From UHGV virus genome UHGV-0040088: a stretch of DNA of 39,518 nt; one strand, 5' to 3'. Below the pieces are notes generated by a model. It was not told the DNA's origin. It did no database searches and saw only the letters and a list, made by a program, of their open reading frames with translations. The DNA is from a virus. A program made the translations under genes and the position numbers. Of the stretch, positions 15,444 to 37,709 are shown piece after piece. The number at the start of each line of letters is the position of its first letter. Within the stretch, counting starts at the first letter, position 1.

Positions 15444-17792
15444 ATGGCAACTAGTTTAGGTACAATTTACTACGAAGTTGATGCAAAAACTGGTCAACTT
15501 CTCGTTGCTCAACGACAGGCAGACCAGGCTTTTGACAGCATCGAGCGTGGCGCAAAACGCGCTGACCGCCAGGTGAACACGCTTAAGACTTCAATCAAAG
15601 CGCTATCCAGGGTTATCCATTTGCTACTTGCTGCGGAGGCTGTACGCCAGTTTATTGACATGGCGGAGCAAGCGAAAATGCTTCGCGTAAAAATCAAAAT
15701 GCTTACTGGTGATACGGAGGCTGCCGGACGTGTTTTCGATGGCCTGAAAGAAATATCAAAAGAAACCGGGCAAAGCATGAAGGATACTGGCGAACTGTGG
15801 CAAGGCCTTGCTATATCGCTAAAAAACACATCCGCTACTGAAGGCCAATTGCTAAACCTGGTCGGTACGATTCAGAAAATGGGTGCATTAGGCGGAGCGT
15901 CAGCGGAACAGATGTCTAACTCTATGCGCCAGTTCCGCCAGTCTATAGACGGCGGCGTGCTGCGTGCTGAAGAGTTTAACAGTCTGCTTGAAAACACGCC
16001 AACCATCGTACAGACAATGGCTCGCCATATGGGGTTGTCAATGGGCCAGTTCCGCGCCGAAATGCTGGACGGCAAGATCACGGCTGAAAGGATGGTTAAC
16101 GCGATTCAGGCGGCTACACAGGAAACAAACGAGAAGTTCGCACAGTTGCCGCGCACATCCGGCATGGCCTTCAATGAGCTAAAAGTTGAGGTGATGGGAC
16201 TTGTCGAACAGCTTGACGATCTTTTCGGCATATCTGACGGCGTTGTGTCAGCAATAGACTTAATCACTGGCGGCGTTGAGGGATTAGGTAAGGGCGCAAA
16301 ATTCGCCGCAACATGTTTCAATACACTCAAAACCGCTGGTAGCGAGTTCATCGACATGTTTGACGATGTTGCTGTTAAGGCTGGCGAGGTTGCTGAAGAG
16401 ATTATCAGGATGGTAACGCCAATCAAGGCGCTAATGGATGGGTACAAATGGATGAAGGAGATCATTGACAAACGCAAGGAAGAGCTAAACAGCAACAACG
16501 AGAAGAAATTCGGCCCCACCATTGGCAAATTCATGACATTCAAGAATGACATAGAAAAAGCCACAGCCGCCTATGACGAGTTCATGCAGAAACAGGGTGA
16601 GGCTGACGATGGCAAGATCACCGGATTCGATCAGCCAGTTGGTAAGCCCAAAAAAGGCAAAAAGGGCAAAAATGACAAGAAATCTGAAGCTGATCGGCTT
16701 GGTGATGAAGGCATAAAAGTGTCCGACCAGTACAACAAGGACGCCGCCGCCATGCGTAAAGCGCTGGAGAACGGCAAGGCCATTGATGCTGCGTTCGCTC
16801 AGGGCAAAATAACCCTCCTTGAGTACAAGGCCGCGCAGAAAGGGATAGGCAAGGAGCTGAAGGACGAATTGGCGCAAATCCCTGTTGATGAGCTACGCGA
16901 CAAATGGGATCACATAGTCAGCCCGATGGATCAGCTTAAGGGAGAAATTGACCCAATCAAGCAGGCGCAAAATGAATGGGCCGTTCGAAAACAAATGCTG
17001 ATAGACCTTGGCGCTACAGAGGCGCAACAGAAACAGGCGCTATTGGAATACGAACAACAGATCAGAGATCTGAAATGGGAGCAATGGCAGGCGCAAAGCG
17101 AAACAAACGGCCTGATTGGTGCTTGCGTTAGTGGCCTGAAAGGTGGAATGGGCAACGCCCTTACCGGCCTACTAAACGGTACTCAATCGTTAAGCGAGGT
17201 TTTCGCCAACCTGGGAAGTAGCATACTTAACACTGTTGGCAACAAACTATCAGAAATTGCCGCCAACTGGATAGCAGATCAGTTGATGATGGAAACGCAA
17301 AGCAAGGCTACCCAGGCAAGTACAACGGCTGGCGCTGTTGCTGCCCAAGGCGAGATTGCGGCGGCGGCTATCCCGGCGGCGGCGGCAACGGCTGCGTCAA
17401 CTGGTGGTAGCTGGGCGGCGGCTGGTGCTGCGGCGCTTTCTGCGATCATGTCACTGGCAACGTCAATCTTTGGCGGCGGGCGTTATAATGGTGGCTCTGT
17501 TAATGGTGGTAGTCTGTATCGCGTAGGGGAACACGGGATTCCTGAGTTATTCCAGACTAGCAACGGGCGTCAGTATATGATTCCTGGCGAGAATGGTAGG
17601 GTAATTCCTGGTCGCGATCTCTTCAGTGGTGGCGGCATCAACATGCCTGTTAACATCACTGTCCAGACCACAAACGGATTTAGCGACGAAGACAGTCGCA
17701 GACTTGAACAGACGATGGAACGCGTCGCAATGAAAATGATGGCAAGGGAATCGCAACGGCCCGGAGGGATGTTACAACCTCGCAGGAAATAA
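15444..17792 (+). CDS. tail tape measure protein
   Basis: 782 aa, highly alpha-helical with a Gly/Ala-rich C-terminal region (GGGRYNGGSVNGGS); position upstream of M-L-K-I-J. Confidence 0.85.
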   Translation: MATSLGTIYYEVDAKTGQLLVAQRQADQAFDSIERGAKRADRQVNTLKTSIKALSRVIHLLLAAEAVRQFIDMAEQAKMLRVKIKMLTGDTEAAGRVFDGLKEISKETGQSMKDTGELWQGLAISLKNTSATEGQLLNLVGTIQKMGALGGASAEQMSNSMRQFRQSIDGGVLRAEEFNSLLENTPTIVQTMARHMGLSMGQFRAEMLDGKITAERMVNAIQAATQETNEKFAQLPRTSGMAFNELKVEVMGLVEQLDDLFGISDGVVSAIDLITGGVEGLGKGAKFAATCFNTLKTAGSEFIDMFDDVAVKAGEVAEEIIRMVTPIKALMDGYKWMKEIIDKRKEELNSNNEKKFGPTIGKFMTFKNDIEKATAAYDEFMQKQGEADDGKITGFDQPVGKPKKGKKGKNDKKSEADRLGDEGIKVSDQYNKDAAAMRKALENGKAIDAAFAQGKITLLEYKAAQKGIGKELKDELAQIPVDELRDKWDHIVSPMDQLKGEIDPIKQAQNEWAVRKQMLIDLGATEAQQKQALLEYEQQIRDLKWEQWQAQSETNGLIGACVSGLKGGMGNALTGLLNGTQSLSEVFANLGSSILNTVGNKLSEIAANWIADQLMMETQSKATQASTTAGAVAAQGEIAAAAIPAAAATAASTGGSWAAAGAAALSAIMSLATSIFGGGRYNGGSVNGGSLYRVGEHGIPELFQTSNGRQYMIPGENGRVIPGRDLFSGGGINMPVNITVQTTNGFSDEDSRRLEQTMERVAMKMMARESQRPGGMLQPRRK

Positions 17793-17936: not shown

Positions 17937-18461
17937 TTATGTGCCATGATTAACACCATAATATTTTTCTTCTAAAAACATCCTGTAAGCTACTGCATCA
18001 CCGAAATCGTCAAAGTATTTATTGCTTTTTCTTTTTCCGTTCACAGCTATATACACCCTCCACTGCTCCCTAGACTTGCACCACGATACACCACGAAAAC
18101 CGCTAGTATTGTTTGACTTTATTTTCCCACTCCTTACGAAATCAGCACAGTTATCAACCTGATAACCTATGTTAAGGTTTTCTATTCTATCATCACCCCT
18201 TACGTCGTTAATGTGCCTTATTACATGCTCATCAGGTATCGGGCCGTGATGCATTACCCATATAACTTGATGTCTATAGTAATTTCTCTTTTTATACGTG
18301 AATATGTAGTAACCGTTTTTATTCCTGGCGCCCACCGGACCCGGTTTTCTTCTTCCTCCATTTTCACATATTAAAGTTTTCCAATATATGTTCCCTTCAC
18401 TGTATATAAACAAGTCATTCCAGTTTATGCTATTGACCATGTCGTGATTTATTTGTGACAT
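17937..18461 (-). CDS. HNH homing endonuclease (HNH plus AP2-like)
   Basis: Motifs HQVIWVMHHGPIP, RHINDVRGDDRIENL, FRGVSW..QWR; AT-rich relative to flanking tail genes. Confidence 0.85.
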   Translation of the reverse strand: MSQINHDMVNSINWNDLFIYSEGNIYWKTLICENGGRRKPGPVGARNKNGYYIFTYKKRNYYRHQVIWVMHHGPIPDEHVIRHINDVRGDDRIENLNIGYQVDNCADFVRSGKIKSNNTSGFRGVSWCKSREQWRVYIAVNGKRKSNKYFDDFGDAVAYRMFLEEKYYGVNHGT

Positions 18462-22526: not shown

Positions 22527-25500
22527 ATGAGTAGCGGCGGCGGCAAAGCCAAAACACCAACACTATTGAACGATAACCTGTATCACAAACAGTTTTATCG
22601 TGTTTTAGATATTCTCAGCGAAGGGCCGATATACGGTCCGGTAAACCAGAAAGCGCCACTGAATGACGTGATGCTTAATGACACACCTGTTACTGACGCA
22701 AACGGGAATACATCAATCCCCGGGATTAGTGTAGCCTGGCGCAACGGCACGGCTGACCAGTCGCCGATTAATGGTTTTAATGCCATTGAGTCAACCGTTA
22801 TTGTCAACGCAAAGGTAACTCACGACACGCCAATAATCAGGACTGTTTCAGATCCAAACGTTACCCGCGTCAGGTTAAATCTTGGTGTTGACGCTCTCGT
22901 CCAGTCAGATGAAAAGGGCAATCAATACAATACATCCGTCATGTTGATGGTTGATGTTAAACCGTCATCTTCTTCTACGTGGTCGCTGATTAAAGATATA
23001 CACATTGGTCCCGGCAAACAAAGCGGTGAGTATCTGGAAGCCCACATCATTAAAGCACCGGATGAAAAACCGTTTGATATTCGCGTTCGTCGCGTGACAG
23101 CAGACAGCCACGGCGATCTATTGCGGAACGATACGCGGTGGAGCAGTTACAGCGAAATAATTGACGATAACCTGTCTTATCCCCATACCGCTGTAGCTGG
23201 CGCGGTAATTGACCACGATCAATATACTGATACGCCTACACGTACCTATCACCTTCGCGGCCTGATTGTTGATGTTCCTGATAACTACAACACAGAAACG
23301 CGCGCGTATTCTGGTTTATGGCTTGGCGGATTCAAAAAAGCGTACACCAATAACCCTGCGTGGATTTTCCGGTATCTGGTTAAAAACGAGCGCTTCGGGC
23401 TTGCTAAACATGCTGGTTACATTGATGTTGATGATGGCGCTTTGTACGTGCTCTCCCAATACTGCGATCAGTTGGTTGATGATGGCTATGGTGGCCTTGA
23501 ACCTCGCATGACGCTTAACGCTTACATTACGGAGCAAATGAGCGCCCGCGACCTACTGGATAACATTGCAGGTATGTTCCGTGGTATCGCGTTATGGGAC
23601 GGGCAACGCCTTACCGTGATGATTGATGCACCACAGGATCCAATTGCCACCATCACAAACGCAAACGTCGTTGATGGCGCGTTTACTCGCTCAAGTCTTC
23701 CGCTTGCAGAGTGTTACAACGCCGTGATCGTATCATGGACTGACCCGGAAAACGGCTGGGAGCAATCAAAAGAATACGTGGCAGATGATGAACTAATCGC
23801 CCGCGATGGTTATAACGAAACCACGTTGGAGGCGTTCGGGTGCACGTCACGCGGGCAAGCGTACCGCGCTGGTAAATGGCTGATAGAAACAGCAAAACGC
23901 GAGCCGTCTAAATTCACGTTTAAAATGGCCCGTGACGCAATTCACTTCACCCCTGGTGATATTATCGAGATACTCGACAATAACCGCGCTGGCGCTCGTT
24001 TAGGCGGTCGCATCGTGGCAAACAACGGCAGGGTTATCACTGTCGATAAGGTTGATTCTGAATATATCGCCCCCGGCGACACCATTAGCCTGCTTGATAG
24101 TGACGGCAAATTTAAAAAACACCAGATCACCGGAGTTAGCGGAAACAAAATTACCCTTGCATCTGCCCCGGCATGGATTCGTAACGGTACTGTGTTTGCC
24201 GTGTCAACTAACGCAGCAAAACCCGTATTGTGTCGAATCGTCAGCGTGGCGGAAACTGAAAATAACAGCGTGTACACCATAGAGGCTGCACAGCATGATC
24301 CGCACAAACAGGCTGTAGTAGATAATGGCGCAATCTTTGAGGTCAACAACGATACGCTTAATCACTTCCGCGTGCCAAACATTGAAAACCTGAAGGTGTT
24401 AAACATTGGATCTGAAACAGTTCAATGCCGCGCAACATGGGAAACACTGACGACAACTCATCGCCTGACCTTTGAAATCCGCGTATACAATTCAGCGGGG
24501 GCCGTAGTTAAAAGCTACGAAACTACTAATTACAGTTATGATTTTTATGGCATTGATGCGGGAACCTACTCATTAGGCATCCGTGGCAGAAATGACACGG
24601 GCATGAAGGGTGCTGAAAGCATTGTGGATCTGGTTATTGGTGCACCAGCGGCCCCGGTAGGAGTTAACTGGGTTCCCGGTGTATTTCAGGCTACAGTTTA
24701 CCCGATCAGCAGAACAACGCTTACCACTGACACCAGTTATGAGTTTTATTACTCAGGTGAAAAACAGATCACCGATCCGGCATCAGTAACCACTAAGGCA
24801 CAATATACCGGGCGTGGTCATCAGTGGACTTTTGGCGGCATGAACACGGGGCACACCTATTACGTTTATGTGCGCACACGCAATGCTTTTGGCGTGTCTG
24901 ACTTTGTGGAGGCATCAGGTAAGCCGACAGAGAATTTTGATGAAATCAGCGATTACGTCACCAAAGACGTGATGAACTCAGAACAGTTCAAGGAAATGAT
25001 TGGTGACATCAAAGATCTTGGTGATCGCACGGATGTTATTGAAAATGCCACAAATGAACTAAAAGCAGCTACCGACAACCTCAAAACTGCAACTGATAAT
25101 CTGACCAACATAACTGACGATTTAAGAACTGAAACCGACAACCTGACTAACATAACCGAAGATTTAAGAAATGATACTGACAACCTGATTACAGAAACAG
25201 GATCAATAAAAGCTGATACAGATACGCTAAAAAAAGAAACAGAAGATCTTTATAAAAAAGTTAAGGAAAACGCCGATGATATTGGTCAGCATGAGTCAAG
25301 AATTGATTCATTAGAAGTGTCCAGCGAAAAAGTTGGCAGCGAACTGGCGCAAGCAAAAGCAAGCCTGCAAAACGCGTCATTGGCGCTTATCAACAACTCG
25401 CTTGCACAGACAAACACGCGCGTTACCCTTACCGCCCAGTACAAAAAAGGCAGAACGGAAACGAAAGCGGAAATTGACCGTATTGACAACGTTATCGCTG

Positions 25501-28076
25501 AAGAGAAAAAAGCAACGGCTGAATCACTGAAAACCATCACGGCAGAAATGAACACGATGGATTCCAACCTTAAAGGTCAGATCTCCAGTGTGGAACGCGC
25601 AGTGGCTGACGAGGCTAGTGCCCGCGCTGAAGCTATTAACGGTGTGAACGCCTCAATAAGCAATCTCGACAAGAAAACGGATGCCAGCGTCAATAGGCTT
25701 GATCAGGCTATTGCAGATGAAACGAACGCCCGCACACAGGCGGTCAGTGACGTTAACGCAAGTATCTCGGTACTTGATAAGAAAACTGACGCCAGCGTTA
25801 AACGCCTGGATCAGGCAATCGCTGACGAAACCAGCGCAAGAACCGAAGCTATCAGTGGCGTGAACGCATCAATTTCAACGCTTGATAGCAAAGTGGAAAG
25901 CAATATAACGCGCATAGATAAAGCTATTGCAGATGAAACGCAGGCGCGTACAGACGCAATAAGCGGCGTCAAAGCGAGCATTAACACACTTGAAGGCAAC
26001 ACCAATTCAGAAGTTAAACGTCTGGATCAGGCAATCGCTGACGAGGCCAGTGCCCGCACACAGGCGGTAAGTGATGTAAAAGCATCAGTAAGCAACCTTG
26101 AAAGCAAAACTGACGCCAGCGTTAAACGCCTGGATAAAGCTATTGCAGACGAAACAAGCGCACGCAGCGAAGCTATTAGTGGGGTAAATGCCTCAGTATC
26201 AGCGCTCGACAAGAAAACCGATTCAAGCATAAGCCGCCTTGATAAAGCCATTGCGGATGAAACAAGCGCGAGAACCGAAGCCATCAACGGTGTGAATGCG
26301 TCAATTTCCACACTCGACGGCAAGGTTACAAGTAACGTTAGCCGCCTTGATAAAGCAATATCAGACGAAACGAAGGCAAGAAGCGACGCAATAACAGAGG
26401 TTAAAGCAGACTTAACAACGCTTGAGAACAGCACAAACGCCAGCGTTAAGCGTCTTGATCAGGCAATTGCCGATGAATCAAGCGCCCGCGCACAAGCAAT
26501 ATCAGGACTCAGCGCAAATCTTGGCACTGTTGAAAATAATGTTGGCAAAAACAGCGACGAAATAAATCAGGCAAAAGCAAGCCTGCAAAACGCATCTATT
26601 GCACTTATCAATAACTCAATCGCTCAAACCAACACGCGTGTTACTCTTTCAGCCCAATACAAGAAAGGAATCAGAGAAACCAACGCGAAAATTGACCGCA
26701 TTGACAATGTTGTAGCAGAAGAGAAAAAAGCAACGGCAGAAGCCATTAGCGGGGTAAGCGCATCGATCACCGATCTTGATAAGAAAACTGAAGCAAGCGT
26801 TAACCGCCTTGACAGGGCGATTGCAGACGAAACAAGCGCCCGCAGCGAGGCTATCAGCGGCGTGAATGCGTCAATTTCCACGCTTGATAGTAATGTGAAA
26901 AGCGACATTACCAGGATGGACAAAGCCATCGCCGATGAAACAAAAGCACGCGCAGACGCAATAAGCGGCCTTAGCGCATCGCTTACCAGTACGATCAACT
27001 CAAAAGTGTCTGAAGTGTCAACGGCACTTTCTACGCATGAGGAATCAAGTGCAGAAAAATTTAGCCAGATCTCGGCGTCTTTCGAATCAGTAAACTCAAG
27101 CATTACAGAATGGTCGCAGGCAATGGCTACAGCAGATAAGGCGTTGTCAACGAAAATTGATCAGCTAACAGTGACTGTTAACGGGAATAAGACGGCAATA
27201 GAGACGACATCTAAAGCGTTAACCGACTTTAAGGGTAATGTTGATGCGTCATATTCAATTAAGCTCGCCACCGACAACAACGGCATGAAATACGCAACAG
27301 GTATGTCACTTGGCCTTACTGGTGATGGGACCAACTTTCAGTCGCAGTGTATTTTCCTTGTTGACCGCTTCGTGTTAATGACTGACGCTAACGGTTCGTA
27401 TCAAACGCCTTTCTATGTAACTAATGGCGCAATGTATGTAAGAGAAGCGTTTATTAAAGACGGCACTATCAACTCCGCCAAAATAGCTGATCTAATACAG
27501 TCAGTTAATTATAGCTGGGAAGGCGCGACAGGATGGGCGATAAATAAAAACGGTAACGCAGTATTTAACCAAGTAACCGTAAGGGGGACGGTATACGCTA
27601 ATGCTGGTGTGTTTAACGGTACTGTTTACGCAACTGGCGGTAAATTTACTGGAGCAGTTGAAGCCACAAGTTTTGTTGGTGACGTAGCAAGTATGTCAGT
27701 GATAAACGAGAAAGTATTTCCGTCAATGAGGGGGAGCGGCAGCAGGGAAACTTCAAAAACTTATCTTGATTCAAGTTCATCAAGTTTATCAAAAACCGTT
27801 TACGTTATGATTCCGTATGATTTGTCATACTATACACATAGTGAATCTTCTCGTATCAGCGTAACTATAAACATAAACGGACACGCAAAAACAATTAATA
27901 TAGAAAGGCCAGCATCAGGTCCATCAATGTCATCTGTCGCGGTGCACTGTGTACATGACCTAACATACCCAACAATTACAGTCAAGGTTACGGAAAACTT
28001 TACCAATACATCCGCTGCATCAATAAGAAAACCAGGCTTGATACTTATAACAAGAAGTTCAGGAACATGGGTATAA
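22527..28076 (+). CDS. J: tail tip / host specificity protein J (lambda gpJ-like) with greatly expanded central coiled-coil repeat region
   Basis: N-terminal about 800 aa align block by block with lambda J as recalled (SEGPIYGP, YHLRG..YSG, YCDQ..GYGG..EPR, FGCTSRGQAYRAGKWL). 1849 aa versus about 1130 for lambda J. Confidence 0.9.
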   Translation: MSSGGGKAKTPTLLNDNLYHKQFYRVLDILSEGPIYGPVNQKAPLNDVMLNDTPVTDANGNTSIPGISVAWRNGTADQSPINGFNAIESTVIVNAKVTHDTPIIRTVSDPNVTRVRLNLGVDALVQSDEKGNQYNTSVMLMVDVKPSSSSTWSLIKDIHIGPGKQSGEYLEAHIIKAPDEKPFDIRVRRVTADSHGDLLRNDTRWSSYSEIIDDNLSYPHTAVAGAVIDHDQYTDTPTRTYHLRGLIVDVPDNYNTETRAYSGLWLGGFKKAYTNNPAWIFRYLVKNERFGLAKHAGYIDVDDGALYVLSQYCDQLVDDGYGGLEPRMTLNAYITEQMSARDLLDNIAGMFRGIALWDGQRLTVMIDAPQDPIATITNANVVDGAFTRSSLPLAECYNAVIVSWTDPENGWEQSKEYVADDELIARDGYNETTLEAFGCTSRGQAYRAGKWLIETAKREPSKFTFKMARDAIHFTPGDIIEILDNNRAGARLGGRIVANNGRVITVDKVDSEYIAPGDTISLLDSDGKFKKHQITGVSGNKITLASAPAWIRNGTVFAVSTNAAKPVLCRIVSVAETENNSVYTIEAAQHDPHKQAVVDNGAIFEVNNDTLNHFRVPNIENLKVLNIGSETVQCRATWETLTTTHRLTFEIRVYNSAGAVVKSYETTNYSYDFYGIDAGTYSLGIRGRNDTGMKGAESIVDLVIGAPAAPVGVNWVPGVFQATVYPISRTTLTTDTSYEFYYSGEKQITDPASVTTKAQYTGRGHQWTFGGMNTGHTYYVYVRTRNAFGVSDFVEASGKPTENFDEISDYVTKDVMNSEQFKEMIGDIKDLGDRTDVIENATNELKAATDNLKTATDNLTNITDDLRTETDNLTNITEDLRNDTDNLITETGSIKADTDTLKKETEDLYKKVKENADDIGQHESRIDSLEVSSEKVGSELAQAKASLQNASLALINNSLAQTNTRVTLTAQYKKGRTETKAEIDRIDNVIAEEKKATAESLKTITAEMNTMDSNLKGQISSVERAVADEASARAEAINGVNASISNLDKKTDASVNRLDQAIADETNARTQAVSDVNASISVLDKKTDASVKRLDQAIADETSARTEAISGVNASISTLDSKVESNITRIDKAIADETQARTDAISGVKASINTLEGNTNSEVKRLDQAIADEASARTQAVSDVKASVSNLESKTDASVKRLDKAIADETSARSEAISGVNASVSALDKKTDSSISRLDKAIADETSARTEAINGVNASISTLDGKVTSNVSRLDKAISDETKARSDAITEVKADLTTLENSTNASVKRLDQAIADESSARAQAISGLSANLGTVENNVGKNSDEINQAKASLQNASIALINNSIAQTNTRVTLSAQYKKGIRETNAKIDRIDNVVAEEKKATAEAISGVSASITDLDKKTEASVNRLDRAIADETSARSEAISGVNASISTLDSNVKSDITRMDKAIADETKARADAISGLSASLTSTINSKVSEVSTALSTHEESSAEKFSQISASFESVNSSITEWSQAMATADKALSTKIDQLTVTVNGNKTAIETTSKALTDFKGNVDASYSIKLATDNNGMKYATGMSLGLTGDGTNFQSQCIFLVDRFVLMTDANGSYQTPFYVTNGAMYVREAFIKDGTINSAKIADLIQSVNYSWEGATGWAINKNGNAVFNQVTVRGTVYANAGVFNGTVYATGGKFTGAVEATSFVGDVASMSVINEKVFPSMRGSGSRETSKTYLDSSSSSLSKTVYVMIPYDLSYYTHSESSRISVTININGHAKTINIERPASGPSMSSVAVHCVHDLTYPTITVKVTENFTNTSAASIRKPGLILITRSSGTWV
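25581..27010 (+). repeat. in-frame tandem repeats (36 aa / 108 bp, about 12 copies) inside J
   Basis: Repeated unit approximately V(K/N)RLDxAIADETxARxxAIsGVNASISxLDxKTDAS; the array is split by a second copy of a block (AKASLQNAS..IDRIDNV..EEKKATAE) at about 25358 and 26570. Confidence 0.85.
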
Positions 28077-28079
28077 AAA

Positions 28080-28108
28080 TAACCCCGCTTCGCGCGGGGT
28101 TTTCTTTT
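28080..28108. terminator. bidirectional terminator between J and minus-strand lipoprotein gene
   Basis: A-rich run, stem ccccgc/gcgggg, then TTTTCTTTT. Confidence 0.65.
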
Positions 28109-28346
28109 AGTAGTTAGCTACACAGTTAGAAGGGCTACCGATGCGGCGCATGTTGTGATCGAGTTCATGACACCATTGACCAGTATAAGGCAGTTTTTCA
28201 GTGTCATAGACAAGATGACCTTCACCATCATAGACAACATCTTGTGGAATTACTCCGCTATTCGGCAGGTTATGCAATGCGGCCTCTTTGTCAACAGCGC
28301 AACCAGTAAGAGCTACGGCCGCAGAGAATAAAACCACTTTGAACAT
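28107..28346 (-). CDS. small lipoprotein (79 aa), possible receptor-blocking superinfection exclusion factor
   Basis: Signal peptide with lipobox LTGC (MFKVVLFSAAVALTGC); function inferred from position between the J and fiber genes. Confidence 0.6.
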   Translation of the reverse strand: MFKVVLFSAAVALTGCAVDKEAALHNLPNSGVIPQDVVYDGEGHLVYDTEKLPYTGQWCHELDHNMRRIGSPSNCVANY

Positions 28347-28533: not shown

Positions 28534-31500
28534 ATGATTTACACAACTGGAACAGTTGCCATTAACGGCAATACTGTTAAAGGCACGGGAACAAACTTTT
28601 CCGCGCCGCTTTCTCTTATTCGTGTAGGTTGCACGCTCATTGCTGTTGGCAATCCTGTGCAGATCTTTACCATCACGGAAATTAAAAGCGGCACTGAACT
28701 GTTAGTGACGCCAGCAGCTAACCCCGCAATCCCTGCCGGGACAAAATTTAGCATCCTGCTATCTGATTCGATCTCAGTTGATGGGCTTGCTCAGGACGTA
28801 GCTGAAACCCTGCGTTACTACCAGAGCAAAGAAACAGAAATCGCCTCCGCCGTAGAGTGGTGGAATGAGATCGGCGGCGAAGGTCAGTTGGATCAGCTTC
28901 TTACCAACATTCGCGCAGAAACAGCCAAATCAACCGCTAACGCTCAAAAAACAGAAACTGACAAAAACGCAGCAGAAGCGTCAAAAACAGCGGCTGCAAA
29001 ATCCGCCACGGCAGCGAAAACATCAGAAACCAACGCTAAGGCAAGCGAGACGGCAGCGAAAACAAGCGAAACCAAAGCCAAAACATCAGAGGACAGGGCG
29101 CAAGAATATCTGAATCAAATGGGAAGGCTTACCAGCCCAATGGTCCAATGTGCTTGGCCTGTTGAAACTAGCGGTAATGGCGCTTACGTTAAGATTGCTA
29201 AACTTAGCGATCCAAAGTCATCAGACTGCCACTTAACGCTAATGGTTACAAATGGCGGTGGCTACGGTTTAAGTTACGGGAATATTGACTTTATAGAGAT
29301 CTCCGCTCGAGGTCTTAACGACACAGGCGAAGTAACCAGTGAAAATATATCTAAATTTTTAAGTATTCGCCGACTCGGTTCACCAAACCTTCCCAATAAT
29401 AGTCAAATGTGTTACGGCCTGGTTAAAGGTGACGGCTATATCGAGGTCTGGTGCTACCAGCGATCTTATATTAAAAACACAAAAGTAGCGGTGCTGGCGC
29501 AGACTGGCAACACGGAATTATACATTCCTGAAGGATTTGTTAAGCAAGCCGACGCACCCGCTGGATATATTGAAAGCCCAGCAGCAAGGATTTACGACCA
29601 GGTAAACAAACCCAGCAAGGCAGATCTGGGCCTTTCTAATGCTATGCTTACAGGCGCTTTCGGTCTTGGCGGTAGCGGGATATCAACAACCGGCAAGATG
29701 AGCGATGTAGAGATCTTAAAAGCTCTGCGTGACAAAGGTGGTCATTTCTGGCGCAGTGATAGGCCGACCGGAAGTACGGCGACCATTTATAGCCGCGGTT
29801 CTGGTATATTCTCGCGGTGCGGCGATACGTGGTCGGCGATCAATATCGACTACGGAACAGGTAAAGTCAAGGTTTACGCTGGTAACGATGGTGGACTTAA
29901 TAGTGGTAATTTTTCCGTCAATGAGCTATACGGAACCAAAAATAAACCGTCGAAATCGGACGTTGGACTTGACAACGTAACCAACGATGCACAGGTTAAA
30001 AAATCCGGCGACACCATGACTGGCGACCTGTCGATCACTAAAGCAACACCTTCGATATACATTCGTTCAAAAAGTGGAACCGCCCATGTATGGTTCCAGA
30101 ATGAGGATCAATCGGAACGCGGTGTTATCTGGGCGCCTACCAATTCCGAAGGACTTGGCGAAGTTCACATCAGGGCCAAAAATACAAAAGGTGAATCAAC
30201 TGGTGAACTCATTGTTCGTCACGACGGGGAAATTAGGGTTCCCAGTCTCACAGCGAGTAAAAAAATAAAAGGCGCAACCGCAGATTTTACAAACACATCA
30301 GAAACCACGACGGAGAACACGTTAAAAATCAGCGGTAAGCAGCATACACCGTTAGTTTTAACGCGTACCGGGTATTCTGAAAACCTGTCCATTGGCTTCA
30401 AGGTTGATAACGTTGTTCAAAAATACCTCGGTATTAATAGCGGTGGGGATCTGTGTTTTGGTGATTATGCCGATCACAAAACAAACAGCAAAGTTATCAC
30501 GCAAGCAGTGCTTGATAGCGGTGTGACGGTAGGCGGTCAGACAACCTTTTCTAAACTTGCCACATTTAGCAAAGGCATGACCGGGCCTATCGTACCGGAA
30601 GGGCTTGACTCACGTACCATTGATCTTAATGACCTAATCATCAATGGTTCAGATATAGGATCGGTCAAATACTATCAATGTACATCTTCCAGTGGTGGAG
30701 CGAACATTACCAACAAGCCTGACGGCGTAGGCGGTAACTTCTTGCTGCGTGTAGAGTCAGTCCGTAAAGTTAGTGATACTGACTATATAAGTATGCAAAC
30801 ACTGACTAGTGGCGACAAAGAACGCGTATTTGTTCGTTTTAATACTAATAGTAAGTGGACAGCATGGTGTGAACCTGTTGTATCGGGATGGAAGCAGGAT
30901 GTGTCTGTTAAGACGCTAACAGCAGCCGAAGACGTCATCCTTAAAAACAGTGATACTGGTCCGCGCCTTATTTTAAGGAACTCTAACACATCGGCGCAGT
31001 CGTGGAGTGTAAGGGTGTGGGGTGAAAGCGGAAGGGAAAGCGTTTTTGAGGTTGGTAACAGCAATAGTTACATGTTCTATGCTCAGGAAGATGCAGCAGG
31101 AAACAAGAAATTTGACTTTAACGGTGATATTTCATGTAAGACGCTATATCAAACTTCTGACCAGAGCCTTAAAGACAACATTAAGGTTATAGGTGACGCC
31201 ACCGAATCCATCCGCAAAATGAATGGGTACACCTACACGTTTAAGGACGATGGCCTGCCTTACGCTGGCGTTATTGCACAGGAAGTAATGGACGCGCTGC
31301 CTGAAGCGATAGCGTTTACCACTCTTTGCGGCAAGGAGCTACAAGGACCAACAACTGACGGCAACATCTTACGCGAGGAAATGAAGTGCCTCAGCGTTGA
31401 CTATGCGGCGGTGACTGGTTTACTTGTCCAGGTGGCACGCGAAACGGATAACCGCGTCACCGAACTGGAAGAGGAGAACGCAAGCCTGAAAGCTAACATT

Positions 31501-31569
31501 GCCGCAATGGATGAGCGGATAGCAAAACTTGAAGCGCTTATCAGTCAGTTGACCGGAAGCGAAGAATAA
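28534..31569 (+). CDS. side tail fiber protein (Stf-like N-terminus) with C-terminal intramolecular chaperone (peptidase S74-like) domain
   Basis: N-terminal KTSETNAK-type Ala/Lys/Thr/Ser repeats as in lambdoid Stf fibers; C-terminus SDQSLKDNIKVIG...NGYTYTF... then a coiled coil, as in self-cleaving chaperone domains. Confidence 0.85.
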   Translation: MIYTTGTVAINGNTVKGTGTNFSAPLSLIRVGCTLIAVGNPVQIFTITEIKSGTELLVTPAANPAIPAGTKFSILLSDSISVDGLAQDVAETLRYYQSKETEIASAVEWWNEIGGEGQLDQLLTNIRAETAKSTANAQKTETDKNAAEASKTAAAKSATAAKTSETNAKASETAAKTSETKAKTSEDRAQEYLNQMGRLTSPMVQCAWPVETSGNGAYVKIAKLSDPKSSDCHLTLMVTNGGGYGLSYGNIDFIEISARGLNDTGEVTSENISKFLSIRRLGSPNLPNNSQMCYGLVKGDGYIEVWCYQRSYIKNTKVAVLAQTGNTELYIPEGFVKQADAPAGYIESPAARIYDQVNKPSKADLGLSNAMLTGAFGLGGSGISTTGKMSDVEILKALRDKGGHFWRSDRPTGSTATIYSRGSGIFSRCGDTWSAINIDYGTGKVKVYAGNDGGLNSGNFSVNELYGTKNKPSKSDVGLDNVTNDAQVKKSGDTMTGDLSITKATPSIYIRSKSGTAHVWFQNEDQSERGVIWAPTNSEGLGEVHIRAKNTKGESTGELIVRHDGEIRVPSLTASKKIKGATADFTNTSETTTENTLKISGKQHTPLVLTRTGYSENLSIGFKVDNVVQKYLGINSGGDLCFGDYADHKTNSKVITQAVLDSGVTVGGQTTFSKLATFSKGMTGPIVPEGLDSRTIDLNDLIINGSDIGSVKYYQCTSSSGGANITNKPDGVGGNFLLRVESVRKVSDTDYISMQTLTSGDKERVFVRFNTNSKWTAWCEPVVSGWKQDVSVKTLTAAEDVILKNSDTGPRLILRNSNTSAQSWSVRVWGESGRESVFEVGNSNSYMFYAQEDAAGNKKFDFNGDISCKTLYQTSDQSLKDNIKVIGDATESIRKMNGYTYTFKDDGLPYAGVIAQEVMDALPEAIAFTTLCGKELQGPTTDGNILREEMKCLSVDYAAVTGLLVQVARETDNRVTELEEENASLKANIAAMDERIAKLEALISQLTGSEE

Positions 31570-31598
31570 GAGGTGATGTGCGAAGAACATCGCCGCGC

Positions 31599-31628
31599 GA
31601 AACGAGGCTAACGCCTCGTTTCTTTTTA
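31599..31628. terminator. terminator between tail fiber gene and convergent minus-strand early operon
   Basis: 10-bp stem gaaacgaggc/gcctcgtttc, loop taac, then TTTTTAT. Confidence 0.65.
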
Positions 31629-31773
31629 TGTACCAAATAGTGACCAAATACCCAAAACCAAAAACAAAAGCACTGTAACATACTGTTTTATAAATTATTA
31701 TTCACAAAGCTAACCATTCCAAGCATACGGCAGATGGCAGGGCGACCAAGAAGAATTGTTGTCGTTTTATCCA

Positions 31774-32436
31774 TTATCTTTTCCCCGTGTATTCAACGTG
31801 TCCGATACATCCATCAATAATAGCTTGCGCCATATTGCGATAATCGCACGAAAAATCATTGTCACGGCTAAAGTCAATCTCGCTTGCCGCATCTTCACCC
31901 ATTACCTTAGTGGCAAGTGCGAACGCTATTTCAGCGAGCGCCTTTTCTTTCGGGTCAATGTGAATGCGGTAAGAGTATTTCTTCCATGCTACAGTTGTTT
32001 CCGTTTCTGATACTAATTTACTGTGAGCGATAGCCCAATTATCACCGAGATATAAAAACTTAACGACATCGATAACCGTTCCGCTCGTAAGTCCTACACA
32101 ATCAAGCCACACACCAACCGGAGGCTTTTCACATGCCAGCCATTCCGTTTTTTCAGGTTGTGTTTCGCAATCATGGTGCTCATCTTCGATTAATTCATCA
32201 ATAATTTCACTTTCTTTATTCATACCGTCATCATCCTTATTCGATAAATTGGCGTATTTATCAAATTTCCAGCTTGCAGCCATAACCGAATAAGTGCCGC
32301 CAGTGTCAGCGCGAACACCCAATAAATAGTATGATCCAAAATTATATTCCGTGTGGCATGTTGTTACCTCAAACGATGGGTAACACTCAGGGTTGGCGCG
32401 ATGGCTAATCACGCCAATTGCTTTAAGTTTATTCAT
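31774..32436 (-). CDS. hypothetical protein (220 aa), last gene of the minus-strand operon
   Basis: ORF in track; acidic central region; no recognisable motif. Confidence 0.55.
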   Translation of the reverse strand: MNKLKAIGVISHRANPECYPSFEVTTCHTEYNFGSYYLLGVRADTGGTYSVMAASWKFDKYANLSNKDDDGMNKESEIIDELIEDEHHDCETQPEKTEWLACEKPPVGVWLDCVGLTSGTVIDVVKFLYLGDNWAIAHSKLVSETETTVAWKKYSYRIHIDPKEKALAEIAFALATKVMGEDAASEIDFSRDNDFSCDYRNMAQAIIDGCIGHVEYTGKR

Positions 32437-36085: not shown

Positions 36086-36592
36086 TCAGGGTAAAGAAAT
36101 ACCGTGATTGCTATGAAAGTTATACATTCTTTCAGCTTCTTTTCTTGCTTTTACGGCATCATCAAATGAGTCACCGTAATAAACGTATATTGTTTTCTTT
36201 TTCCCATCAGACCCCCTTATACCTATTTGCGCGCGCCATTTATTAGTTTTCTTGTTCCATGTAACGCCAACGCATCCGCTGGTGTTACTTGATGGTATTG
36301 TTTTATTTCTGTTGTTCTCCCTCCTTGTAACCATCCTTAAGTTTTCGATTCTATCATCGCCAGGCACATGATTTATGTGATCTATTTCCATTCCATCAGG
36401 GATAGGGCCGTTAAACATTTCCCAAATAATGCGGTGACGCCATGTACAACACACACCATTAACGCGGATAGTCCAATATCCGCTATGATGCCTACTTCCA
36501 GCAACGTCACCGGCTTTTGTTTTGTTATTTGCGCGGTTACAAGACCAATATAGAACACCGTCCCTATAGGTAAATAAATCATCCCACATCAT
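36086..36592 (-). CDS. HNH homing endonuclease (HNH plus AP2-like)
   Basis: Motifs HRIIWEMFNGPIP, DHINHVPGDDRIENL, CVGVTW..KWR; start at internal ATG 36592/36589; third paralog in the window. Confidence 0.8.
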   Translation of the reverse strand: MMWDDLFTYRDGVLYWSCNRANNKTKAGDVAGSRHHSGYWTIRVNGVCCTWRHRIIWEMFNGPIPDGMEIDHINHVPGDDRIENLRMVTRRENNRNKTIPSSNTSGCVGVTWNKKTNKWRAQIGIRGSDGKKKTIYVYYGDSFDDAVKARKEAERMYNFHSNHGISLP

Positions 36593-37709
36593 GACACACC
36601 ACCATTTCAGGCCTATATACAAAGCGACCAATTTCGCCATAATCAGGACTGTAAATGATAACCGCCGCGCAACGTTGCGATCTCCATCCTCCATTAGTTG
36701 AATAAGCGTCTTTGCCCGCTAACGTGCCGTGGTGTTCAACTATGCCTATAGATGATTCTGTTACTGATTTATGGTGCAAATGTCCGACATGGACGTAAAC
36801 ATATTTCGACTTGCCGAAATCCTCGCGCCAGTCAGCTACGCAAGCAGCCAATAAATTTTCCGGCTTTTTAATAGTGTGCCCGTGGTGGTAAGCAAGAAAT
36901 GTTTTACCGTACTGCGTGTGGTGGACGATAGCAGGTGACACATCAACCGTCACGCGCGGTTCATCTTCGTAAAAAGCCGCCAGCGCCGCACGTAGCCAAA
37001 TCATGCCTGACTGATCGTGATTGCCTGACAACACCTGGATTTCAACATCCTTATGATTTAACAACATTTTACCTACCGCCCGCCGGACAGACCGGATCGC
37101 CACATAAACAAGTTTTGCGTAGCGACTATCTTGATCAAGAATGTGCCCGCTTATTGGCGTCACCGGGACCATACCGTCAGAATGAAGCAGATCGCCACCG
37201 AGGAGCAGTACGGCTTTTTCAGACATCGGAGCAGCGCCAACAGCGTAGTCAAAGAAGTCATTCAACACGCGCTCAGCGATCCCAGTGTCGTAGCTCTCGC
37301 CGCATTCAGCTTTATGAGCAAGCGCCCCGATATGCAGATCAAACACCGGATAAAGGGCCAGGCTTTTTTGAAAATCAATTTCAGGCACTGGCACAGCCTC
37401 CGCGCGTGGTATTTCATCCGTGAAAGCGTCGCGGGCCGCTTCCATTAACTGTTCCATTTCGTCGCGGTCACGGGCTGTTTTAATCCAGCGCATGATCACA
37501 TTGCCATCCTTATCGACGAGCAATGACTCAGCATTGACGCCAAAACCCGGTGCGCGACGCGTGGATATTAAACCGCGTTTCGCCAGTTTTGCGCCTAGCC
37601 GCTCGACGTTGCGTTTTGACATGCCATATTTTTCAGCGATCTGCTTGTACGTTAAACCGTTGTTATATTCAGCGATCAATTGCTCATCGCTGATTTTTCT
37701 TTGTGACAT
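36579..37709 (-). CDS. HTH domain fused to calcineurin-like metallophosphoesterase
   Basis: N-terminal HTH (LTYKQIAEKYGMSKRNVERL); phosphoesterase motifs DLH, GGDLLH, GNHD, GHLHH in canonical order. Confidence 0.75.
   Translation of the reverse strand: MSQRKISDEQLIAEYNNGLTYKQIAEKYGMSKRNVERLGAKLAKRGLISTRRAPGFGVNAESLLVDKDGNVIMRWIKTARDRDEMEQLMEAARDAFTDEIPRAEAVPVPEIDFQKSLALYPVFDLHIGALAHKAECGESYDTGIAERVLNDFFDYAVGAAPMSEKAVLLLGGDLLHSDGMVPVTPISGHILDQDSRYAKLVYVAIRSVRRAVGKMLLNHKDVEIQVLSGNHDQSGMIWLRAALAAFYEDEPRVTVDVSPAIVHHTQYGKTFLAYHHGHTIKKPENLLAACVADWREDFGKSKYVYVHVGHLHHKSVTESSIGIVEHHGTLAGKDAYSTNGGWRSQRCAAVIIYSPDYGEIGRFVYRPEMVVCHDVG

Follow-up and report, generated by a model that had tools for sequence, protein, structure and literature searches.

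How does the side tail fibre of a lambda-like phage fold and mature when no assembly gene adjoins it? This question is raised by the virus genome UHGV-0040088, of which a stretch of 39,518 nucleotides (39.5 kb, referred to here as the window) was analysed, compared with a full genome of roughly 52–54 kb. The fibre gene lies at positions 28534–31569 on the plus strand, is an intact open reading frame (ORF) and closes the late operon. It encodes a precursor of 1011 residues (108.4 kDa). Fibres of the lambda type depend on tfa, a separate gene downstream of them. In the fibre studied here, residues 875–1011 very probably constitute a functional peptidase S74 or intramolecular chaperone (IMC) domain that cleaves itself off. 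By analogy with T5 pb1, endoNF and MyRF, this domain would act as a chaperone for the fibre, cut the chain at a site that can be predicted and unmask the tip.

The C-terminal domain of the fibre

The domain comprises the last 137 of the 1011 residues and directly follows a shaft repeat that resembles T4 gp34. Residues 875–925 match the Pfam family PF13884 (Peptidase_S74, "Chaperone of endosialidase") with 47.6 bits, compared with a gathering score of 22 bits (E = 2.1e-12, model positions 1–56 of 58). This S74 core, located at 31156–31308 on the plus strand, is a small α/β body with the invariant motifs GYTYT and AGVIAQE, as judged from Pfam and from an AlphaFold2 (AF2) model. The original prediction, made from the DNA letters alone, had proposed a C-terminus of the self-cleaving chaperone type and had suggested a profile search for peptidase S74. 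Both the outcome of that search and the aligned Ser/Lys dyad, the extreme C-terminal place and the fold match agree with it. The motifs were also quoted correctly, with SDQSLKDNIK at residue 875, NGYTYTF at 897 and GVIAQEV at 912; only the start, given as 31155, is one base early, as that position is the third base of the Thr874 codon and the Ser875 codon spans 31156–31158. Base 31569 is the end of the fibre stop codon.

Homologues of the domain in a collection of 5.8 billion proteins come nearly all from E. coli and are titled "tail fiber domain-containing protein" or "peptidase S74". The family alignment and profile were built from 55 homologues, down to about 25% identity. When compared with solved IMC domains, this profile matches S16 gp37 (6F45, E = 6e-22), a putative tail fibre (8JOV, E = 1e-11), the ICA domain of MyRF (7DC3, E = 2e-11) and the GA-1 neck appendage (3GUD, E = 1e-3). 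A single-sequence phmmer search of the PDB finds S16 gp37 weakly (E = 5.6e-4) and misses T5 and endoNF, so that the 55-sequence profile is needed. Among the E. coli relatives of the chaperone domain, two length variants of the coiled coil occur that are one heptad apart (insertion NQVSELV, around residues 997–1000 in the window), as well as a third, shorter variant without the LQGPT.DG loop.

The fold was predicted by AF2 for residues 860–1011, using the 55-sequence alignment, with a mean predicted local distance difference test (pLDDT) score of 86.7. The monomer model contains an α/β body, a β-hairpin and a C-terminal helix. In the body (889–921), helices 889–893 and 915–921 flank strands 899–902 and 909–912, all with pLDDT above 90. 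The long β-hairpin covers residues 926–955 (31309–31398, plus strand; strands 926–939 and 945–955) and is likely a 'tentacle' that holds on to the fibre tip as folding proceeds, by analogy with the tentacle hairpins present in T5 pb1 (PMC4690869). The C-terminal helix, residues 957–1008 (31402–31557, plus strand; pLDDT 97–98), is a predicted trimerising coiled coil with the a/d heptad register V975/L978, N982/L985, I989/M992, I996/L999 and I1003/L1006, and in phmmer it matches designed coiled coils and P22 gp26. The terminal coiled coil of the original prediction corresponds to this heptad-periodic helix. In MyRF, trimerisation is driven by a coiled coil (PMC8326128).

A Foldseek comparison with the PDB returned, at E below 0.004, IMC domains only, i.e., those of MyRF (7DC3), GA-1 (3GUD) and endoNF (3GW6), and the next match has an E-value of 1. 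Among the viral models in BFVD there are 298 matches at E ≤ 1e-3, with T5-like tail fibres, gp37 and proteins titled S74 or IMC at the top. The TM-scores to IMC crystal structures are moderate (0.39–0.60), as is to be expected when the model is a monomer and the crystal chains come from intertwined trimers. When residues 600–1011 were modelled, the IMC part was again confident, while pLDDT was below 50 over most of 600–815, the receptor-binding tip.

Catalytic residues and predicted cleavage

The dyad motif, S875-D-Q-S-L-K880, is encoded at 31156–31173 on the plus strand, with the Lys codon at 31171–31173. Over the 55 homologues, Lys880 is invariant and Ser875, Asp876, Asn882 and Ile883 are at least 90% conserved, and in a core alignment of nine sequences both Ser875 and Lys880 are invariant. 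The family block SSDrrLKdNI aligns with SSDRRIKKDI of S16 gp37, with ASDERLKREI, with pADLRAKEHV of the MyRF S587A mutant and with SDERHKTDI of GA-1. The corresponding dyads are S911/K916 in endoNF and S587/K592 in MyRF, which was shown by mass spectrometry to be cut between P586 and S587 (PMC8326128). Besides the dyad, Tyr901, part of the invariant GYTYT motif, lines up with Tyr615 of MyRF, the aromatic position at which a mutation impairs MyRF cleavage most (PMC8326128).

In T5 pb1 the dyad is Ser1264/Lys1269, Thr1263 stands just before the Ser, and an S1264A mutation stops processing (PMC4690869). A comparison of the fibre, DISCKTLYQT/SDQSLKDNI, with T5, AVNGTINT/SDARLKNDV, shows that the order and spacing of Thr-Ser and Lys are identical. 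Ser1264 of T5 seems to leave with the chaperone (PMC4690869), and the GA-1 chaperone chain released in 3GUD opens with SDERHK. Based on the dyad context in T5 and MyRF and on the GA-1 chain starting with Ser, the scissile bond is predicted to be Thr874/Ser875 (31153–31158, plus strand), give or take one residue. The mature end that had been placed near residue 875 lies within one residue of this bond. The masses computed for the predicted cut are 93.5 kDa for the mature fibre (residues 1–874) and 14.9 kDa for the released domain.

In T5 the active site is completed by Arg1250 from the neighbouring chain, which is part of the motif WGSGR (PMC4690869). The pattern WG.S..R is conserved in family alignment A1, and Arg834, in the sequence WGESGR, may be the counterpart of the T5 residue. 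This assignment is of low confidence because WGESGR belongs to a generic shaft repeat of the T4 gp34 type. The repeat covers residues 819–867 (30988–31134, plus strand) and matches 4UXE and 5NXF in phmmer (E = 2e-4).

Taken from the known systems, the maturation of the fibre would proceed as follows. The C-terminal coiled coil (residues ~957–1008) would align three nascent chains, after which the α/β body and the hairpin 926–955 would serve as the template on which the intertwined distal fibre folds. A correct trimer would complete the active site, for which T5 uses an Arg from the neighbouring chain and for which Arg834 is a weak candidate here. Once the trimer has formed, Ser875, activated by Lys880, would attack the Thr874–Ser875 bond. 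Departure of the 14.9-kDa fragment would then leave the 93.5-kDa fibre with its receptor-binding tip exposed. In T5, competition for the receptor is confined to the processed fragment (PMC4690869).

A few points weigh against self-cleavage at this site. Pairwise BLASTP of the fibre C-terminus against residues 1200–1396 of T5 pb1 gives nothing significant; of the likeness to the K1F endosialidase and T5 type that had been proposed, motif, profile and fold hold and a pairwise similarity to T5 does not. The GenBank record of T5 ltf ends the mature peptide at 1264, and the literature differs on whether the Ser stays on the fibre or goes with the chaperone, which makes the cut site uncertain by one residue. 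Furthermore, the domain was modelled as a monomer only, with the inter-chain geometry of the active site, including the Arg of the neighbouring chain, outside the model. Lastly, the text of the mEpimmI proteomics paper, which deals with the group of temperate coliphages to which the window is related, and two of its supplements give no fibre size, peptide coverage or processing.

One alternative is that the S74-like domain is not cleaved and is kept on the virion as a distal cap or an extra coiled-coil knob. Transient as well as retained chaperone 'caps' have reportedly been discussed for Alteromonas phage fibres in one paper, and cleavage of the present fibre is a prediction. In the phi29 appendage, too, the exact end of the mature chain is ambiguous (PMC4690869). 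Retention of the domain is nevertheless quite improbable: the Ser/Lys dyad, the Thr in front of it and Tyr901 are intact and conserved, and a retained domain would probably block adsorption because the uncleaved form of T5 cannot compete for the receptor (PMC4690869). Very unlikely as well is a domain that cleaves itself while fibre assembly continues to depend on another chaperone working in trans, be it encoded elsewhere in the phage genome or supplied by the host. If this were the case, the statement that no tfa is needed would be an overstatement. Such a gene could lie in the part of the roughly 52–54 kb genome beyond the window or among the several small tail-region ORFs without assigned function. 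However, no tfa-like gene adjoins the fibre in the window or in its relatives, and C-terminal fragments of T5 pb1 folded and were auto-processed when expressed in E. coli (PMC4690869). A chance or low-complexity match through the coiled coil, with no S74 domain at all, is scarcely conceivable and is refuted by the Pfam match at 875–925, which lies outside the coiled coil and 25 bits over the threshold, and by profile and fold matches to IMC structures that cover 97–126 residues, the α/β body included. A self-cleaving IMC domain is the preferred reading.

Gene neighbourhood and modular conservation

The late operon ends with a strong intrinsic terminator at 31599–31622 or, more widely delimited, 31599–31632 on the plus strand, 30 nt past the fibre stop codon. 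Its 10-bp stem contains six GC pairs and precedes the run TTTTTAT. In the records of the phages mEp044 and mEp554 a terminator is annotated at the matching place, behind a fibre gene that comes last, and in the prophage of E. coli 2-331 the fibre abuts the host genes ydaN/zntB. Downstream of the fibre in the window, all genes are on the minus strand: they encode a 220-residue protein without assigned function, NinB, Bro-N proteins, a DnaB-type helicase and an HNH endonuclease, and their matches in Pfam and PHROGs are to NinB, Bro-N or DnaB, or are absent. The sole downstream plus-strand ORF of at least 50 residues is an 84-residue ORF with a TTG start (31756–32010), which is located wholly within the minus-strand gene for the 220-residue protein. 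No member of the tfa family adjoins the fibre or was found among ten ORFs of the tail region and its flanks that were compared with PHROGs, and the arrangement of a Tfa-dependent side fibre, with tfa directly downstream, is thus absent. That no tfa is seen downstream, as stated in the original prediction, is borne out by the terminator and the opposite-strand early genes behind it, and is true across the group relatives checked. As the chaperone is built into the fibre, a tfa-type gene would not be required. A minus-strand ORF over the domain (31420–31647, 75 residues, TTG start) was judged spurious because of its full overlap with the strongly supported fibre gene.

The region between the fibre terminator and the 220-residue minus-strand ORF (31723–31766 in the window) differs from that in relatives, as the integrase is missing where they have one. 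The window aligns to mEp044 through the 3′ end of the fibre to record position 26 and resumes at mEp044 position 1554, from which it follows that ~1.5 kb (the integrase at 186–1385 and a small ORF of mEp044) is replaced by ~44 nt. An integrase was present in all 48 genomes analysed by the mEpimmI paper (PMC11893012). The arrangement without int is also found on an independent gut-metagenome contig that carries the exact fibre, and an integrase may be located elsewhere in the rest of the genome, outside the window.

The assignment as a tail fibre comes from PHROG tail-fibre families (best E = 1.7e-276). Upstream of the gene are lambda-like tail genes, i.e., a tape measure gene (15444–17792), homologues of M, L, K and I, and J (22527–28076, 1849 residues). 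The window, which comes from a human-gut metagenome contig, is ~89% identical to temperate coliphages of the mEp021 group (mEpimmI), and contigs from human-gut metagenomes encode the exact fibre protein among the neighbours seen here. A named orthologue is the fibre of E. coli 2-331 (1014 residues), with 91.6% nucleotide and 89% amino acid identity.

The N-terminal tail-attachment module, residues 1–237 (28534–29244, plus strand), occurs in other mEpimmI fibres and in depolymerases of Klebsiella siphophages. With the corresponding N-terminal parts of the fibres from mEp554 and mEp044 it shares 80–87% amino acid identity, and residues 3–237 match the PDB entries 7VYV, 7VZ3 and 7LZJ, titled 'Depolymerase' (phmmer, E = 4.5e-37), the first two of which represent Depo32 from Klebsiella phage GH-K3 (PMC10581125). 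An enzymatic domain was not detected in the fibre. After the attachment domain comes a low-complexity stretch rich in Ala, Lys, Thr and Glu, KSTANAQKTETDKNAAEASKTAAAKSATAAKTSETNAKASETAAKTSETKAKTSEDRAQ (28900–29120 in the window, residues ~125–195), with a weak 21-nt tandem period at 29026–29085, and the Klebsiella depolymerases 7VYV and 7LZJ carry a similar stretch.

At the other end of the protein, an S74 domain is found at the C-terminus of all four fibres checked at this slot, those of mEp021 (gp82, 449 residues), mEp554 (841), mEp044 (854) and E. coli 2-331 (1014). They have the N-terminal attachment module and the C-terminal IMC in common and differ in their middles. In megablast, nucleotide similarity to mEp044 starts at base 2623 of the fibre gene, exactly at the Ser875 codon, and similarity to PhiR70_1 and mEp460 starts at base 2634, so that the onset lies 0–11 nt from this codon; these boundaries are approximate, and a weaker protein similarity to mEp044 extends ~100 residues further upstream. 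Because similarity to otherwise different fibres begins at or near the Ser875 codon, the IMC behaves as a conserved cassette whose border lies close to the cleavage site. Whether this can be extended to a universal portable folding cassette within this coliphage group, with the cleavage site doubling as a recombination joint at which tips are swapped without a matching chaperone gene, is doubtful. The released coiled-coil trimer of 15-kDa chains could possibly have a role of its own after cleavage.

The shaft shows signs of exchange. Fibre nucleotides 448–1478 (28981–30011 in the window) share ~80–82% identity with the long tail fibre of Salmonella phage GEC_vB_N5, which is T5-like, and 72 nt of these (1407–1478, 29940–30011) are 90% identical to T5 ltf. 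These identities indicate that segments of the fibre shaft were probably exchanged between temperate mEpimmI phages and virulent T5-like phages.

The domain assignment is correct and concerns a routine member of a well-studied family, whose mechanism and wide distribution are well established. It is already in public annotation: PF13884 is precomputed for the exact fibre protein in a public collection, and RefSeq names the orthologues S74 family peptidases, with the title 'pyocin knob domain-containing S74 family peptidase' given by RefSeq/PGAP to that of E. coli 2-331. The pyocin knob label is unverified, the tip region 600–815 having no confident model, and among the NCBIfam models there is no match to the fibre. 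The mEpimmI group paper calls the fibre a "tail tip protein" and is silent on S74, a chaperone or processing (PMC11893012), so the present reading adds a small detail to the description of the group. It predicts that the fibre on the virion has 874 residues (93.5 kDa) and not 1011, with Thr874 as the end of the receptor-binding tip. This bears on proteomics, structural work and the engineering of host range. The built-in chaperone would likewise explain the absence of tfa in this phage group.

Some other features of the window deserve mention. The central tail fibre protein J (plus strand), which is unusually long, contains a long run of ~36-residue, coiled-coil-like repeats at residues ~1000–1480, RLDQAIADETSARTEAISGVNASIS.LD.KTDASVK, placed before its Phage_Tail_Tip domain (1557–1694), and Tandem Repeats Finder reports a 108-nt period at 25773–26281. 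J repeats of variable length are also noted in the mEpimmI paper (PMC11893012). Antisense between J and the fibre lies a gene for a 79-residue lipoprotein (28107–28346, minus strand; lipobox LTGC; phrog_12984 'lipoprotein') beside a bidirectional terminator (28081–28101), and its position matches that of the Lpp lipoproteins tied to superinfection exclusion (PMC11893012). There are two HNH endonuclease genes, both on the minus strand. The one at 17937–18461 is antisense within the tail operon, between the tape measure gene and the M homologue, and the one at 36086–36694 adjoins the DnaB-type helicase gene. In mEp021 the HNH gene is at a different site, between I and J, and this difference suggests that these genes may be mobile homing-endonuclease insertions.

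Comparison with known systems

The closest solved structure by sequence is S16 gp37 (PDB 6F45), to which the profile matches over about 150 residues. SSDRRIKKDIK and AGLIAQEV in S16 correspond to TSDQSLKDNIK and AGVIAQEV in the fibre. S16 is a T4-like myovirus and 6F45 is taken from the distal subunit of its long tail fibre, whereas the present fibre belongs to a lambda-like siphovirus tail. The IMC of T5 pb1 (residues 1264–1396, PDB 4UW8) resembles the domain in motif, profile and fold, with a pairwise similarity that is not significant. In T5 the Arg precedes the Ser by 14 residues, compared with 41 residues for the candidate Arg834. Upstream, the receptor-binding tip of T5 bears no relation to that of the fibre, and T5 is a virulent phage in contrast to the temperate coliphage group considered here.

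The IMC of K1F endoNF (PDB 3GW6), founder of MEROPS S74, belongs to the same Pfam family, and its Ser911/Lys916 correspond to Ser875/Lys880. Foldseek relates the two with an E-value of 6e-4 and a probability of 1.0, at a sequence identity of 14%. In endoNF the domain follows an enzymatic tailspike and a triple β-helix stalk, unlike in the present fibre with its lack of a detectable enzymatic domain. The ICA domain of mouse MyRF (PDB 7DC3) is part of a eukaryotic membrane-bound transcription factor, and its cleavage frees the transcription factor instead of maturing a virion fibre. Lambda Stf/Tfa, finally, shares the gene position after J and apparently the same accessory side-fibre role. The difference is that here tfa is absent, the fibre itself carrying the chaperone function in a part that is predicted to be removed.

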